From: an uncultured Candidatus Saccharibacteria bacterium
GTDB lineage: Bacteria; Patescibacteriota; WWE3; UBA101185; 2-01-FULL-41-18
Length of the DNA stretch: 64,000 bases
Direction of reading: 5' to 3'
Assembly (NCBI GenBank): GCA_964636285.1
Contig: CAZWQF010000002.1
Location: 9,669-73,668 of the forward strand
In this document: positions 40,938 to 57,021 of the stretch, piece by piece
Layout: every line of letters begins with the position of its first letter
How positions within the stretch are numbered: position 1 is the stretch's first letter
Notes under the pieces: model-generated
Seen by the model: the letters and a program-made list of their open reading frames with translations, nothing else
Told to the model about the DNA's origin: nothing
Database searches by the model: none
Made by a program: the position numbers and the translations under genes

Positions 40938-41012
40938 GCGGGAGTAGTTCAGAGGTAGAGCGCCTCCTTCCCAAGGAGGAAGTCGCGGGTTCAAATCCCG
41001 TCTCCCGCTCCA
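40938..41012 (+). tRNA. tRNA-Gly (anticodon CCC), CCA encoded; integration target of the downstream element
   Basis: Acceptor GCGGGAG/CTCCCGC, anticodon stem CCTCC/GGAGG with loop TTCCCAA, T-loop GGTTCAAAT, discriminator U + CCA. The 3' 22 nt overlap the integrase stop region. Confidence 0.85.
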
Positions 41013-42523
41013 AATGGGAGTCTCTCACTCCCAAAGTCCAAAATAGATTGATATAGCGGACTTAATTCGTGGTTCAATGTACCGTTATAGTCCCAAGTCA
41101 TTCCAGAGGGGAAGATTGAACCAAGTAACACTTTAGCCTGGGAAATATTTGACCTTTTGTAAGACTCTCCTAAATCAGCCAGCATTGTTTTCATAAAATC
41201 TGTCACTTTATCTATGTTGTATTTCTCAATTAAGGAGTCGTCTTTAACAAGTTGTGCTTTAACCATTTTGTCTTCAATTATCTCGTTTTGTTCTTTAAAT
41301 ATTTCATCTGAATAAATTCCCGATAAATTCTTTTCAACCAGCTGTCTTCTCATTTCCTGAAGACTAGTTATCTCTGCCTCGGCCTTATCTTTTAACAGTT
41401 TTAATCTTGAATACCTTTCTTGATAAACCTTATACATTCGCGTAATAAAAAGATTGAGCGTTTCAGGCTTTGGAGTAGTGAGTTTTAATAGATCCACAAC
41501 TGCAGTTTCTAATGTGTTTTGTTTAATGGATTTAGTACATCCACCAGCGCATCGATAGTATGGGTATCTGTCATTACGACCTCGACTCCATCCGCCAGTT
41601 AAACCAACATTGCAGATACTGCACTTCACGATTCTTCTAAGTGGAAAGTCTTCATTTTCTCTAGTTCTTCTAACAAGCACCATATCACTCACCCTACGAC
41701 CATCTAAAACAGCTTGTACTTTGTAGAACAGCTCTAAAGTGATCATGGGTACATGTTGACCTTTAACCTCGTCTGTATAGGTTTTAGAGGTCAGAATACC
41801 TGCATAAAACTTTGACCTAAATATTCTGTTTGAAGTTTGAGGTCTTATTTTGTATTTTTTAATCCCATGTACTTCATACAAGCCTGATTCGGTCATATAT
41901 TTTGCAATTTGTGACAGGCTCGTTTTACCAGTTGCCATTACCTCCCATGCATTTTTTACTTTATCCCAAGTATCAGTATCTTTAACTGCAAATCCTAACT
42001 CGAACTTATAACCTAGTGGGGCTTTACCACTAATTAGACCTGATTTATATCTTGCTCGAAGTCCATTTCTAGCACGCTCACTTCTGATGTCATTATCTAG
42101 CTGAGCAAAACCAGCAAGAATTGTTTCAACAAGTTTTTCAGTAGGGCTATCACCAGTAGGTTCAGTGGAAGAAATTATAGTAATCCCACACTCTCCAAGC
42201 TTTTTTCGTATAGCCAAGTAGTCCGCAGTTTGCCTTGAAATACGATCAAGTCTGTAAACAAACAATGCATGTACTTTATTTCTGTTTTTCCTAGCGTATT
42301 CAAGTAGATTAATTAGAACTGGCCTTCCTAAAATACTTTTAGCTGACCTTCCTTCTTCTCGAAATAGTTCAACAACCTCATAACCACGCTTTTCAGCTTC
42401 TTTTCGACAAATTCCTTCTTGAGTTTCAAGAGAGAAGTTATCAACTTGTTCTTCAGTTGAGACTCTTAAGTAGATGATGGCTTTCTTGTCTGTAACCTCT
42501 GAATTTCTTTCTTGTTGTCTCAT
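40991..42523 (-). CDS. Large serine recombinase (integrase)
   Basis: N-terminal resolvase catalytic domain with active-site Ser (AIIYLRVSTEEQ), a recombinase domain, and a C-terminal zinc ribbon (CSICN...YYRCAGGC) plus coiled coil. The last 7 codons are encoded by the tRNA-Gly 3' end. Confidence 0.8.
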   Translation of the reverse strand: MRQQERNSEVTDKKAIIYLRVSTEEQVDNFSLETQEGICRKEAEKRGYEVVELFREEGRSAKSILGRPVLINLLEYARKNRNKVHALFVYRLDRISRQTADYLAIRKKLGECGITIISSTEPTGDSPTEKLVETILAGFAQLDNDIRSERARNGLRARYKSGLISGKAPLGYKFELGFAVKDTDTWDKVKNAWEVMATGKTSLSQIAKYMTESGLYEVHGIKKYKIRPQTSNRIFRSKFYAGILTSKTYTDEVKGQHVPMITLELFYKVQAVLDGRRVSDMVLVRRTRENEDFPLRRIVKCSICNVGLTGGWSRGRNDRYPYYRCAGGCTKSIKQNTLETAVVDLLKLTTPKPETLNLFITRMYKVYQERYSRLKLLKDKAEAEITSLQEMRRQLVEKNLSGIYSDEIFKEQNEIIEDKMVKAQLVKDDSLIEKYNIDKVTDFMKTMLADLGESYKRSNISQAKVLLGSIFPSGMTWDYNGTLNHELSPLYQSILDFGSERLPFGAGDGI

Positions 42524-54044: not shown

Positions 54045-56428
54045 AGTCTCAACAAGAAGACAAATCAAAATAAAAGAAGTCAGAGACGGAATTCTGATTT
54101 TGCCTAACAATGAATACCGCAGTATTCTTGAAACCTCATCAGTTAATTTTGAATTAAAAAGTGAAGCTGAGCAGGAAGTACTTATTGATAACTTTCAAAA
54201 CTTTTTAAACTCACTGCCTCAAAAGTTACAAATAATAATTAGAGTCAGAGAACTTGATATTGATCGGTATGTTGATCGTATTACGCAAAGCAGATTTACA
54301 GAAAAAGATTCCACCTACAAAGAGCAATTAGAAAGTTATGGGAACTTCATGAAGGTATTAGTTTCAGGAAATAAAATACTTTCTCGCAGGTTTTTTATTG
54401 TTATTCCATATAAACCAGAGGATAAAGCCCATGACTTTCAGATTATTAAAGAACAACTTAATCTAAACAGGGATTTAGTGCTTCGAGGTATTGAAAAGCT
54501 TAGCATGAGAGCCAAACAACTTGATAGTCTTGAACTCCTTGATCTTTTTTATACGTTTTATAACCCACGTGAATCAAAAGTTATGGAGTTAAAAGGTCAC
54601 ACTATAGAAATGTTATTAAAAAACCAATATGCATAAACTATTCATAAATCTTCAAAAATTTAATATTTTAGATATTAAAAAAAGGAAAGCTAAAAAGCGA
54701 CTGGAACACAAAAAGGCACTTCAGTTTAACTTTGGCGAACAGGATCAAATTGACCTCATTTCCTATTCTGGGCTTAAAGAAGAAGCAAGCTATCTGCAAA
54801 TGGGAGAAAAAGTTGTTCGAACACTTTTTATCTCGGGTTACCCATATATTGCAAATACTGGTTGGCTTAATTTGCTTATTAACTTTAATCACAACATTGA
54901 TATTAGCTATCACATTGAGCAAGTTGACCCACAACTTGCACTCCCAAAACTAAATCGAAAAATCACAGAGCTGGAATCAACCAAACGAAACATGCTCAAA
55001 GAAGGCAGAGTGATTGGTTCTGAAGTAACCGATCCACTTGAGTCTGCCATAGAACTTAAAGACAAGATTCAAAGGGGTCAGGAAAAACTGTTTCAAGTTT
55101 CAATCTACATGACGATCATGTCAGACACTTTAAGTGAGCTTTATAAACTCACCACAATTTTAGAAACGATTATGTCCTCAAGACTTTTCTATATTAAAAC
55201 TGCCACTTTCCAACAGACGGAAGGGCTTCAATCAATTCTTCCAAGAGGTGAAAACATTTTAAAACAAAAACGAAACCTTGATAGTAGCTCAACAGCCTTA
55301 ACTTTCCCATTTGTATCATCTGAGCTTGTTCAAGAATCAGGCATTTTGTATGGGATTAACAAATCCAATAATTCGCTCGTTATTGTTGATCGGTTTTCTT
55401 TAAATAATGCTAACTCAATTATATTTGCTCAGTCGGGTAGTGGTAAAAGTTATACCGCTAAAGTTGAAATCTTAAGACAACTCATGCAGGGAACTAAAGT
55501 TATTGTTATTGACCCTGAGCGAGAGTACCAACAACTTGCAGCTTCTGTTAATGGAACTTACATCAAGCTTTCATCAAACTCCAAAGAGAAAATAAATCCT
55601 TTTGATTTTTCACAAAACACCATTGATGATTCAAATGATCTTTCCGAACACATTCAGGACTTAATGGAAATTATTTCACTTATGGTTGGATCACTGAGTC
55701 CTGAAGAAAGAGCCATCATTGATAAGGCAATTATTGAAACCTACAAACAAAACGGATTTTCCTTGCGTAGTGTGAAAAAAAATCAAAACAAAAAGTTTCC
55801 ACTTTTAAAAGATTTATACAAAACCTTAAAAAAACTTAACCAAACTGATCTTTGTAACAGACTTGAGCGGTATATAGAAGGCTCACTCTCTGAAGTGTTT
55901 AACTCCCAAACAAATATTGAGCTAAACAATAGACTCGTTGTATTTGATATCAAGGATTTAAACGACTCCATCAGGCAAATCATGATGATGGTGGTAGCCA
56001 ACTTTGTTCACGCTCAAGTAAAAACCCATCCACAAAAAAGAATTCTGGTTATTGATGAAGGCTGGATGCTTTTAGAACATCAAGAAAGCGCCAGGTTTGT
56101 TTCAAACCTCGTTCGAAGAGCGAGAAAATACTATCTAGGGGTTACCATCATCTCCCAACAAGCCAATGACTTTTTAAATAATGAGTATGGCCGGGCTATA
56201 GCCTCACAATCAGCTCTACGAGTACTTATGAGGCAAGACACTACAACCATCAAAAAAGTAGCTCAGGAATTTCACTTAAGTGAGTATGAAGAGCATTTTC
56301 TTTTAACTTGTGAACGAGGTGAAGCTTTAATTATTGCTGACCAAAATCACGTGGCTTTAAAAGTAGTCGCCTCAGAAAAAGAACACCCACTTCTTACCAC
56401 AGACCCGAAAGAGGTTTACGGACAATGA
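54016..56428 (+). CDS. VirB4/TraC/ConE-like T4SS ATPase, split into two ORFs (54016-54636 and 54629-56428) by an apparent +1 frameshift in an A-run (54616-54623)
   Basis: ORF1 has the VirB4 N-terminal domain (KEVRDGILILPNNEYRSILETSSVNFELKSEAEQEVLIDNFQNFL). ORF2 carries Walker A (FAQSGSGKSY) and Walker B (RILVIDEGWMLL). The combined length is about 805 aa, as expected for VirB4. Confidence 0.7.
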
Positions 56429-57021
56429 ACTATTTAGGTCTGGGTTTTACACTCTGGTTATTTAAAAATGAGCTTAAGTATGTAGCACTCGCTTTCCTGA
56501 TCATTCTTCTAATCCCAGTCTTTGCTGTATTTGTACTCACCCACGCAGGAATAAATCTTGTTTCAGATACACTTGTAAAAATTGATAAAACAACGCAAAA
56601 AATAGAGCTTCTTAATCCCAAGGGTGAACTATATAAAGAGCTTGATGTAACAACCTCATGGCCACTCAAAGGCTATGTCACTTTAGAATTTGGAGAATCT
56701 TCTGCCTTTCAGTTATTTCATACTGGCCTTGATATAGCTACATTCAAAGGCGATAAAATCATCCCCCTTATGCCTGGAAAAGTTATTTATGCTGGTGAAA
56801 TATCTTGGGGGTACGGAAAACATGTCATTATTGATCATGGTGACAACATCACAACCATATATGCACACCTTGATAAAATCTATGTCGTAAAAGGCCAACA
56901 AGTAGGAGCAGGTGAGGTAATCGGTACAGAAGGAGAGACAGGATGGGCAACAGGGCCTCACCTACACTTTGAGGTGAGAGTGTTTGGAATACCGGTTAAT
57001 CCTCTGAGTCTTTTAAGATAA
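56425..57021 (+). CDS. M23-family peptidoglycan metallo-endopeptidase (T4SS-associated cell-wall hydrolase)
   Basis: N-terminal TM. M23 motifs HTGLDIA and GPHLHFEV. Confidence 0.75.
   Translation: MNYLGLGFTLWLFKNELKYVALAFLIILLIPVFAVFVLTHAGINLVSDTLVKIDKTTQKIELLNPKGELYKELDVTTSWPLKGYVTLEFGESSAFQLFHTGLDIATFKGDKIIPLMPGKVIYAGEISWGYGKHVIIDHGDNITTIYAHLDKIYVVKGQQVGAGEVIGTEGETGWATGPHLHFEVRVFGIPVNPLSLLR

Follow-up and report, generated by a model that had tools for sequence, protein, structure and literature searches.

A tRNA-Gly-integrated island that may be a conjugative element with its own type IV secretion system in a bacterium of the candidate phyla radiation

Type IV secretion systems (T4SSs) are common in the Patescibacteria, or candidate phyla radiation (CPR), where VirB4 is found in 2,417 of 3,035 genomes (~80%) and forms a monophyletic clade within MPF_FATA (PMC12102498, Quinonero-Coronel et al. 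2025). TrsD, PrgI and VirB2-like pilins are encoded near these virB4 genes, and there are about two type IV coupling proteins (T4CPs) per genome versus about one VirB4, with 148 of 5,713 T4CPs located near virB4 (PMC12102498). Relaxases gave only 109 hits, 58 of them MOBC and 39 near a t4cp gene, and the systems, whose phylogeny is congruent with class, are described as relaxase-less and repurposed (PMC12102498). A 2025 review credits the Saccharibacteria with the first T4SS that has proved essential to the bacterium encoding it (PMC12857230). PMC12102498 is the only systematic study of Patescibacteria T4SSs that a literature search found, and it is silent on integrases, recombinases, tRNA and DUF2958; the search likewise found no published description of integrative conjugative elements (ICEs) with tRNA-targeting serine recombinases in the CPR. 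Here we describe a T4SS on an island that begins at the 3' end of a tRNA-Gly(CCC) gene. It lies in a 64,000-nucleotide stretch of contig CAZWQF010000002.1 (assembly GCA_964636285.1, positions 9,669 to 73,668), which is called the window below and to which all coordinates without a locus name refer (Table 1).

In its parts, this T4SS is like the published Patescibacteria systems. Its VirB4 is closest to Patescibacteria VirB4s, as judged from similarity matches rather than from a tree, and TrsD, a PrgI/VirB3-like protein and VirB2-like pilins adjoin it. An M23-type hydrolase follows virB4, and the system is chromosomal, of monoderm type and free of outer-membrane components. Its surroundings are different. 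As published, the Patescibacteria T4SSs have no relaxase, few T4CPs near virB4 and a location near dnaA, with no integrase or tRNA junction mentioned, whereas the T4SS of the window is contiguous with a T4CP and a PF13814 protein (9 and 6 kb upstream of virB4), a DUF2958 protein and a large serine recombinase (LSR) inserted at the tRNA gene, and it is not present at that site in a relative. On balance we favor, with no great confidence, an interpretation of the sequence as an ICE-like element of at least 23 kb that was integrated by its LSR at the tRNA-Gly 3' end. Such an element would carry its own T4CP, MOBC-type nickase and T4SS, and it would be one of a family, widespread in the CPR, whose defence and metal cargo varies.

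The region from 29.7 to 40.9 kb, directly left of the tRNA, consists of housekeeping genes for ribosomal protein L19, ClpC, PolA, GatB, GatA, GatC, LemA, PolX, tRNA-Asp and a LysM protein. The closest named relatives of ClpC (30047-32134) are proteins of 'candidate division WWE3' with 65-71% identity. Two unnamed Patescibacteria proteins match it at 83% and others at 78-79%, after which identities drop to 71% or less for WWE3. The host is a CPR organism, as the original prediction suspected and as the relatives of both ClpC and VirB4 bear out, and because of the ClpC relatives it is probably WWE3-like.

One contig from a Hainich groundwater assembly (L026, part of contig Hain_H41_02um_R2_251), which was reached via an 83%-identical ClpC, has the same tRNA-Gly(CCC) gene with no island behind it. 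L026 is collinear with the window from 29.7 to 41.0 kb, that is, from L19 through tRNA-Asp and the LysM gene to tRNA-Gly, with core proteins 60-83% and DNA 66-72% identical. Past the tRNA it has 145 bp and then two convergent open reading frames (ORFs) of 270 and more than 195 aa, with no recombinase, no T4SS and no gene of the 47-64 kb part of the window in the 1.5 kb that can be read. Neither ORF has a Pfam match or a homologue anywhere in the window up to 64000, and the flank beyond tRNA-Gly has no DNA match in the window. The island therefore starts at the tRNA-Gly 3' end and spans at least 41013-64000, with its right end predicted to lie outside the window. Of the interval 40938-57021 first proposed for the element, the start at the tRNA holds, and 57021 just marks where the M23 gene stops. 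L026 does not reveal the exact crossover, because intergenic DNA is not conserved at this distance. A search of JGI metagenomes with PolX, meant to locate an empty site, found only distant relatives (38-48% identity).

The recombinase gene that opens the island runs antisense into the tRNA. The protein is full length, its three Pfam domains all exceed their cut-offs, a YLRVSTEEQ motif can be read near the N-terminus, and there are weak CcrB/XisF-type NCBIfam matches. The LSR stop codon (40991-40993) lies inside tRNA-Gly, and the overlap of 22 nt is made up of this stop, six codons (GAGDGI) and 1 nt. The original prediction had correctly seen that the ORF is completed by tRNA sequence, but the string that it gave as the last seven codons (LPFGAGDGI and the stop) has nine residues, only six of which come from the tRNA. 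In eight independent loci, the window included, the LSR frame stays open as far as the tRNA 3' end and stops only 22-162 nt farther on, within the tRNA or past it. These distances are 22 nt for Gly-CCC in the window, 64 nt for Gly-GCC (L014), 57, 39 and 125 nt for Glu (L009, L005 and L012), 48 nt for Leu-TAG (L004), 162 nt for Leu-GAG (L010) and 125 nt for Arg-CCG (L024/25). The frame crosses the whole tRNA into host DNA in three of the eight, and the contigs of L001 and L011 break off at the LSR 3' end. This read-through is a junction signature of the whole family and not a chance oddity. Together with the island-free tRNA-Gly in L026, it upholds the proposal that a tRNA-completed integrase gene marks an attachment-site junction.

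Four LSRs of the window's clade have a helix, SP(L/I/M)(Y/F)xxI, at a constant 10 residues before the tRNA end even though their tRNAs differ. Because this spacing is constant, the integrase gene may hold the attachment site of the element (attP) in its last ~11 codons, the crossover would fall at the extreme 3' end of the tRNA, and the C-terminal tails of the integrated and excised forms of the integrase would have to differ. With attP in this position the gene would have no stop of its own, and the integrated copy would be read into the antisense tRNA. The int genes of myxophage Mx8 and SSV1 also contain attP, and the C-terminus of their products is altered on integration. The same holds for the gene behind integration-dependent immunity in mycobacteriophage BPs (PMC9262239). 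These three systems use tyrosine integrases with common cores of 25-45 bp, in contrast to the large serine recombinase found here. Serine integrases need a common core of only 2-3 bp, and in mycobacteriophages they reportedly do not use tRNA genes (PMC9262239), which makes a tRNA target unusual. With so small a core, no repeat of the tRNA end would be expected at the other end of the element. LSRs that are 57-70% identical to the window's occupy different tRNAs with different left flanks, which suggests relocation over evolutionary time.

The 114-aa ORF next to the LSR has no Pfam, NCBIfam, PADLOC or PHROG match. It is kept beside the LSR in L008, L009, L011 and L014 at 28-42% identity, and small ORFs occupy the same slot in L001, L021 and L025. 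Several other observations concern the tRNA junctions. In L005 (5565-5771), an 18-nt copy of the tRNA-Glu 3' end with one mismatch occurs 117 bp downstream of the tRNA within the LSR frame and adjoins a perfect 17-bp hairpin; it may be the scar of an earlier integration. In L014 (750-790), a tRNA-like fragment with a D-arm and an anticodon-arm-like part (CAGTGGTAGAGCG...) is located ~250 bp upstream of the occupied tRNA-Gly(GCC). The tRNA-Leu used in L004 lies at one end of a group of eight clustered tRNA genes. Finally, a Logan contig from another sample (L027, 1-74) stops 2-3 nt short of the 3' end of the orthologous tRNA-Gly(CCC), where the assembly graph may branch at the integration point, either from population polymorphism or from a shared tRNA 3' end.

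Related loci were gathered around T4CP homologues and around VirB4 homologues. Wherever the sequence covers the stretch upstream of the T4CP, it contains an LSR on the opposite strand. The backbone order is LSR(-), small ORF(-), T4CP(+), Replic_Relax(+), DUF2958(-), zero to seven cargo genes, pilin, pilin-polytopic protein, PrgI, TrsD, VirB4 and M23, and it is contiguous in five of eight distinct VirB4-anchored loci (the window, L001, L014, L021/22 and L024/25) that have different tRNAs and left flanks. L014 holds the whole backbone within 11.4 kb, with no cargo between DUF2958 and the pilin. The DUF2958 gene has the same position and strand in L001, L004, L008, L013, L014, L021 and L024, and the M23 gene follows VirB4 in every related locus. 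The backbone and copper cargo of L001 and L021 are alike at 75-82% DNA identity, and their first cargo slots differ.

Two further arrangements bear on the ends of the element. A right-hand module of HTH(+), small ORF(-), PLDc_2(-) and a second small ORF(-) of ~40 aa is common to L002 (12523-13520), L015 (16036-17080) and L023 (13325-14290), in each case after the T4SS and variable cargo. The neighbors beyond it differ among the three loci and are housekeeping genes (L19, CTP synthase) in L023. This module may form the right-end part of the backbone shared by these elements, and it does not occur in the window up to 64000. In L008 (5440-9330), the order is M23, a CBASS-like (cyclic oligonucleotide-based antiphage signaling system) pair, a 76-aa ORF, PLDc_2(-), a 73-bp gap, LSR(-), small ORF, T4CP, relaxase candidate and DUF2958. 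There is no tRNA here, the locus is at the end of a 165-kb contig, and its LSR is 63% identical to the window's. The order is compatible, though ambiguously, with the circular permutation expected of an attP-type or tandem joint.

The identification of the T4CP as a TrwB-like coupling ATPase is borne out by TrwB_AAD_bind (1.8e-10) and TraG-D_C (8e-5) matches above cut-off, which are accompanied by DUF87 (1.9e-11) and by TraD, VirD4 and CD1115 NCBIfam matches. An intact Walker A motif (GATGTGKS) and a Walker B-like DEFQNF can be read from the sequence. The HAD-family hydrolase gene that follows is missing from that slot in L001, L014, L021 and L024.

The original prediction saw no obvious MOB relaxase, naming only a Replic_Relax-like protein; in substance, this does not hold. 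CONJscan recognizes PF13814 (Replic_Relax) as the Pfam signature of MobC/MOBC relaxases (PMC5357655), and because the 46205-46975 protein belongs to this family it is a candidate MOBC-type relaxase or nickase. It matches PF13814 over profile positions 3-110 only, the N-terminal half, and its residues 6-230 match phrog_9381 ('replication initiation by nicking'). For the homologues from related loci, the match extends over positions 1-186 of 191, at 34-57 bits and E-values of 1e-8 to 1e-15. Among the three unassigned ORFs that had been singled out for relaxase profile searches, this is the one with a hit; the 114-aa ORF and the 50190-50777 ORF have no family match, the latter in Pfam, NCBIfam, PHROG and PADLOC.

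MOBC relaxases are related to PD-(D/E)XK enzymes and have a winged helix at the N-terminus (PMC12857230). A search with a profile built for the Replic_Relax subfamily of the CPR recovers 1,042 cluster representatives at E≤1e-3, of which 744 remain at E≤1e-10, and nearly all span 240-280 aa. In 138 full-length members, the motif positions are P148 (129/138), D149 (105/138), E/D167 (117/138) and D/E170 (93/138). The window protein has H149, E167 and H170 and thus reads P-H...E..H against a family consensus of P-D...(E/D)xx(D/E), a combination of residues that is unique to it. Because H149 recurs in 11 of the 138 members (8%), it looks like a variant rather than clear decay, and the idea that the protein is a pseudogene-like relic is not decided by this residue. 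An AlphaFold model (pLDDT 66, pTM 0.63) has a helical N-terminal part and an alpha-beta-beta-beta-alpha-beta core. The top Foldseek matches of this model in the PDB are the restriction enzymes MunI and EcoO109I, EndoMS and XisH, none of them significant (E≥0.08).

Known MOBC relaxases, such as TraX of pAD1 and MobC of CloDF13, share with this protein PF13814, an adjoining VirD4-type T4CP and, as predicted for the window protein, the N-terminal winged-helix part and the alpha-beta-beta-beta-alpha-beta domain. They also share the P-D...(E/D)xx(D/E) acidic residues with the family consensus, unlike the window copy with its PH for PD. A tblastn search with the relaxase candidate found no detectable similarity in the PLSDB plasmids.

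Profile searches support most of the minimal T4SS that was first proposed. The pilin, TrsD, VirB4 and M23 assignments stand, the VirB3-like protein has a weak PrgI match (19.9 bits), and the proposed VirB6 part of the pilin fusion has no VirB6 profile match. Homologues of the VirB3-like protein carry PF12666, and those of the TrsD-like protein carry PF26593 (TraC-like). The 430-aa pilin-polytopic protein has at least five transmembrane (TM) segments beyond its pilin domain, and its position and topology suggest that it may be VirB6-like. The profile searches identified no VirB8 in the T4SS region.

The conserved non-coding region upstream of DUF2958 (47299-47470) is kept in eight loci even though the flanking proteins are only ~50% identical. 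A first palindrome or hairpin (47342-47348 / 47354-47360) has compensatory changes in six of nine pairs, a second inverted repeat (47392-47400 / 47436-47444) is invariant, and a GC hairpin occurs at 47449-47463. A GGGGTGAAT box in this region is complementary to the ribosome-binding region of DUF2958. There is no Rfam family match. These features suggest that the region could be an origin of transfer (oriT), an operator of divergent promoters or a structured leader.

The cargo, which the original prediction had described as defence cargo and for which PADLOC detects PDC-S57, a type II restriction-modification (RM) system and CBASS, varies by locus among copper resistance, Znu/Fur, RM, CBASS, AbiE and AAA+S8 genes. 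In the first slot, between DUF2958 and the pilin, L014 has no gene, L001 has AbiEii, L021 an 812-aa protein and L024 a 278-aa protein. The slot after M23 contains copper resistance, Znu/Fur, RM, CBASS or AAA+S8 genes, depending on the locus. In the first slot of the window, a SET-domain (lysine methyltransferase-like) protein (49029-49532) of a kind uncommon in bacteria is encoded beside the 107-aa ORF, which has no family, and the alpha/beta hydrolase. In the type II RM system, the HTH controller-like gene overlaps the gene of the HNH-type endonuclease, and two tandem C5-cytosine (Dcm) methyltransferases, 76% similar to each other, are on the opposite strand. The CBASS pairs an Mrr-like nuclease-SAVED effector with a cGAS/DncV-like nucleotidyltransferase (CD-NTase) that has an AGS_C sensor, and less than 150 bp separates it from the end of the window. 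L008 and L014 have SMODS-like genes after M23 as well. The canonical LexA-type repressor between RM and CBASS might act as a switch that ties the element to the SOS response, or it might be the only lexA of the host. An S24-type repressor is encoded just upstream of the T4SS in L002.

Table 1. Features of the island and its tRNA target in the window
Feature	Coordinates	Strand	Matches and remarks
tRNA-Gly(CCC)	40938..41012	+	ARAGORN; Rfam tRNA 68 bits; integration target, left junction of the island
Large serine recombinase (LSR, integrase), 510 aa	40991..42523	-	Resolvase 7e-31; Recombinase 7e-10; Zn_ribbon_recom 5.5e-6
114-aa ORF	42520..42864	-	4-nt overlap with LSR, co-transcribed; candidate accessory or directionality factor
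Type IV coupling protein (VirD4/TraD/TrwB-like; DUF8128-type in homologues)	42983..45565	+	N-terminal TM segments
HAD-family hydrolase	45560..46027	-	Pfam Hydrolase/HAD_2; cargo between T4CP and relaxase candidate
Replic_Relax (PF13814, MOBC-type) protein	46205..46975	+	PF13814 29.4 bits (cut-off 25.3); candidate relaxase
DUF2958 protein	47008..47298	-	PF11171 2.2e-14; conserved backbone gene
Structured non-coding region	47299..47470		Alignment of eight loci; candidate oriT, operator or 5' untranslated region
Cargo block 1	47496..51718		PDC-S57/T5orf172, DUF2726, 107-aa ORF, SET-domain protein, alpha/beta hydrolase, 195-aa ORF, HNH + SEC-C; Pfam, PADLOC, PHROG
VirB2/TrbC-like T4SS pilin	51858..52211	+	T4SS_pilin 8e-12; TrbC 6e-10
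Pilin-domain and polytopic membrane protein, 430 aa	52237..53529	+	T4SS_pilin 3.5e-11 (residues 28-96); Mbov_0395 pilin-like ICE protein 1.4e-6
PrgI/VirB3-like membrane protein	53526..54044	+	PrgI E 1.1e-3, 19.9 bits, below cut-off 27; TM segments
TrsD-like protein (VirB4 N-terminal domain as its own gene)	54016..54636	+	NCBIfam CD1110 7.7e-10; VirB4_plasma 1e-9; TrsD 4e-6
VirB4-type ATPase	54629..56428	+	P-loop_TraG 4e-24; AAA_10 1e-16
M23 peptidoglycan hydrolase (VirB1 analogue)	56425..57021	+	Peptidase_M23 2.4e-31
Cargo block 2a (type II RM)	57070..60360		HTH (C-protein-like) HTH_3 6e-15; HNH REase_II 1.4e-11; DNA_methylase 2e-81, 5e-79
LexA-type repressor	60400..61023	-	Pfam LexA_DNA_bind + Peptidase_S24; between RM and CBASS
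Cargo block 2b (CBASS)	61049..63856	+	SAVED 4e-9; Mrr_cat 3e-4; SMODS 9e-23; AGS_C 1e-32; PADLOC cyclase 2e-66

Outside the CPR, the closest described elements are the MPF_FATA ICEs and integrative mobilisable elements (IMEs) of Firmicutes with serine integrases, above all the streptococcal IME_Class_8, where a serine integrase, VirD4 and PF13814/MobC also form a compact unit (Coluzzi et al. 2017, PMC5357655). MPF_FATA-type ICEs have a monoderm-type T4SS, as the window does. IME_Class_8 lacks a T4SS and the T4SSs of Firmicutes lack VirB2-like pilins, whereas the window has both, and it further differs from the Firmicute elements in its target at a tRNA 3' end, in an integrase frame that crosses the junction and in its CPR host. 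Mycoplasma ICEs resemble the island as a minimal T4SS in a monoderm with a reduced genome, and the window has matches to their NCBIfam families Mbov_0395 (pilin-like, 1.4e-6) and Mbov_0397 (TrsD/VirB4 N-domain, 1e-9), with scores far below the family cut-offs. They differ in using a DDE transposase and in lacking site specificity (PMC6030558). A prophage can be ruled out, since there are no capsid, terminase, portal or tail genes (Pfam, PHROG) and VirB4 has no match in IMG/VR, either as a single sequence or as an alignment.

If the island is an ICE-like element, the LSR would insert it at the extreme 3' end of tRNA-Gly(CCC), and strand exchange at a 2-bp core, as in serine integrases, would leave no long direct repeat. 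In the integrated state, the integrase gene, lacking its own stop, would be read into the antisense tRNA. The backbone would supply the LSR, the small ORF, a VirD4-type coupling ATPase, a MOBC-type nickase, DUF2958, the candidate oriT or operator region and a monoderm-type T4SS, and the cargo, mostly for defence (PDC-S57, RM, CBASS), would be held in the two slots between DUF2958 and the pilin and after M23. By analogy with MPF_FATA ICEs, DNA would be the substrate, and transfer may start with excision and nicking by the MOBC-like protein, after which the T4CP would receive the DNA, the T4SS would export it and it would reintegrate in a tRNA gene. Such an element may still be active today.

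A number of observations weigh against a mobile element. Comparison with an insertion-free relative, which had been suggested as a way to define both attachment sites, gives the left junction via L026, and no right site (attR) was found in the window. No second copy of the tRNA-Gly 3' end (25, 19 or 13 nt with mismatches, blastn-short) occurs in the window or within 10-23 kb in related loci, and a generic T-arm motif scan found no remnant tRNA. L026 itself has its limits, with only 1.5 kb past the tRNA and a fair divergence between the two genomes. The relaxase candidate combines a half-length PF13814 match with a histidine in place of the PD aspartate, its structure model is mediocre, and the fold search based on that model is not significant. 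The difference in GC content and composition between island and host is weak, and GC at third codon positions (GC3) is host-like; because this foreign-DNA signal is so weak, neither GC nor GC3 was used as evidence. No near-identical copy of any module was found elsewhere, and the DNA is 64-72% identical to all relatives, so there is no sign of recent transfer.

The conservation of VirB4 is another objection. Homologues of VirB4 number over 7,400 and reach 76-82% identity at best, and the mean identity in the alignment is 81%. The top 120 matches all fall at 76-82% in a flat plateau with no closer one, and those with names belong to Microgenomates, Gottesmanbacteria and Daviesbacteria. Identity to relatives is 78-83% for VirB4 versus 45-75% for the T4CP, 22-39% for the relaxase candidate and 23-70% for the LSR, and host ClpC is at most 71% identical beyond its nearest relatives. 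A VirB4 at ~80%, far above all of these, would fit a machine that is essential to the host, as would the published ~80% presence, class-congruence and essentiality in a Saccharimonadia strain. The plateau suggests either that VirB4 is under extreme constraint or that the T4SS has moved between CPR classes.

These observations would be accommodated by an immobilised, domesticated ICE of ancient origin, which we regard as a real possibility but doubtful. Its T4SS would now serve epibiotic life, in host attachment or uptake, as has been proposed for the Patescibacteria T4SS, and its LSR, T4CP and relaxase-like genes would be relics or re-used, in a region that still attracts defence cargo. A role of this kind stays plausible because the T4SS module is so conserved across distant CPR lineages, and the near-universal, class-congruent distribution of the T4SS, the lack of near-identical copies, the PH..E..H motif and half-length Pfam match of the relaxase candidate and the ameliorated GC3 would all be expected of it. 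A relic LSR and T4CP do not fit well with an integrase that is full length with three domains or with intact Walker motifs, however, and immobility does not fit with related LSRs at different tRNAs or with a relaxase motif that varies in the family. The closest core-genome relative is island-free at the same tRNA, and no VirB4 above the 82% plateau that could belong to the 83%-ClpC lineage occurs in a collection of 5.8 billion proteins that contains this lineage's contigs. If inherited vertically, VirB4 in that lineage should exceed 90% identity, because VirB4 is more conserved than ClpC at long range. The absence of such a protein argues from database sequences that the T4SS region is accessory in the window's lineage.

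Alternatively, the mobile unit could be smaller. An integrative mobilisable element of LSR, small ORF, T4CP, MOBC protein and DUF2958 (41.0-47.5 kb) might hijack a resident T4SS, with the T4SS and defence genes being chromosomal or part of another island. The same triad makes T4SS-less IMEs in streptococci (IME class 8, PMC5357655), no T4SS occurs within 10 kb of the T4CP-relaxase modules in L005, L009, L010 and L013, and the excess of T4CPs over VirB4 in Patescibacteria genomes, with few T4CPs near virB4 (PMC12102498), points in the same direction. One metagenome-assembled genome (JBGQJK01) has two T4CP/Replic_Relax modules, one upstream of a T4SS (L007) and one behind an LSR at tRNA-Leu (L004), so that only one is beside a T4SS. 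The different rates at which the modules evolve are also easier to reconcile with separate units than with a single ICE. We nevertheless judge this arrangement unlikely, since it needs independent insertions in the same orientation directly upstream of a T4SS at Gly-CCC, Gly-GCC and Arg-CCG. No tRNA 3' remnant or empty-site flank is found between DUF2958 and the pilin, the pilin of L014 comes directly after the conserved non-coding region, and the tRNA-Gly of L026 has neither a T4SS nor any gene of the 47-64 kb region behind it. Mere adjacency of an LSR cassette, a chromosomal T4SS and a defence island, which could be proposed given that defence islands cluster at tRNA genes and that composition differences are weak, is very improbable, because ~12 genes keep their order and orientation in five or more independent loci with different flanks and cargo, and the conserved non-coding region is shared too.

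An ICE-like element at this tRNA gene would suggest that conjugative elements can still include T4SSs of CPR bacteria, although these systems have recently been described as having lost the partners needed for DNA transfer. It would also contradict, for some Patescibacteria at least, the current view of the T4SS as relaxase-less and exapted. A much broader proposal, which we offer only tentatively, is that across much of the radiation the near-universal Patescibacteria T4SS serves for mating by ICEs of an ancient family, which target tRNA genes through serine recombinases and bring coupling proteins and divergent MOBC relaxases of their own. If this is true, then CPR bacteria conjugate, and these elements would be a main vehicle for their defence and metal-resistance genes. 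An integrase gene that spans attP would also give state-dependent C-termini and hence a built-in state switch. The PF13814/MOBC-type family (744 clusters at E≤1e-10), the T4CP, the tRNA-specific LSR and the palindromic region are testable parts for CPR conjugation, and LSRs with a defined tRNA target and attP in their own 3' end would be a set of new attachment-site/integrase pairs. The CPR makes up a large share of bacterial diversity and its gene exchange is poorly understood; elements of this kind would show how defence systems and metal-resistance genes travel among reduced genomes.

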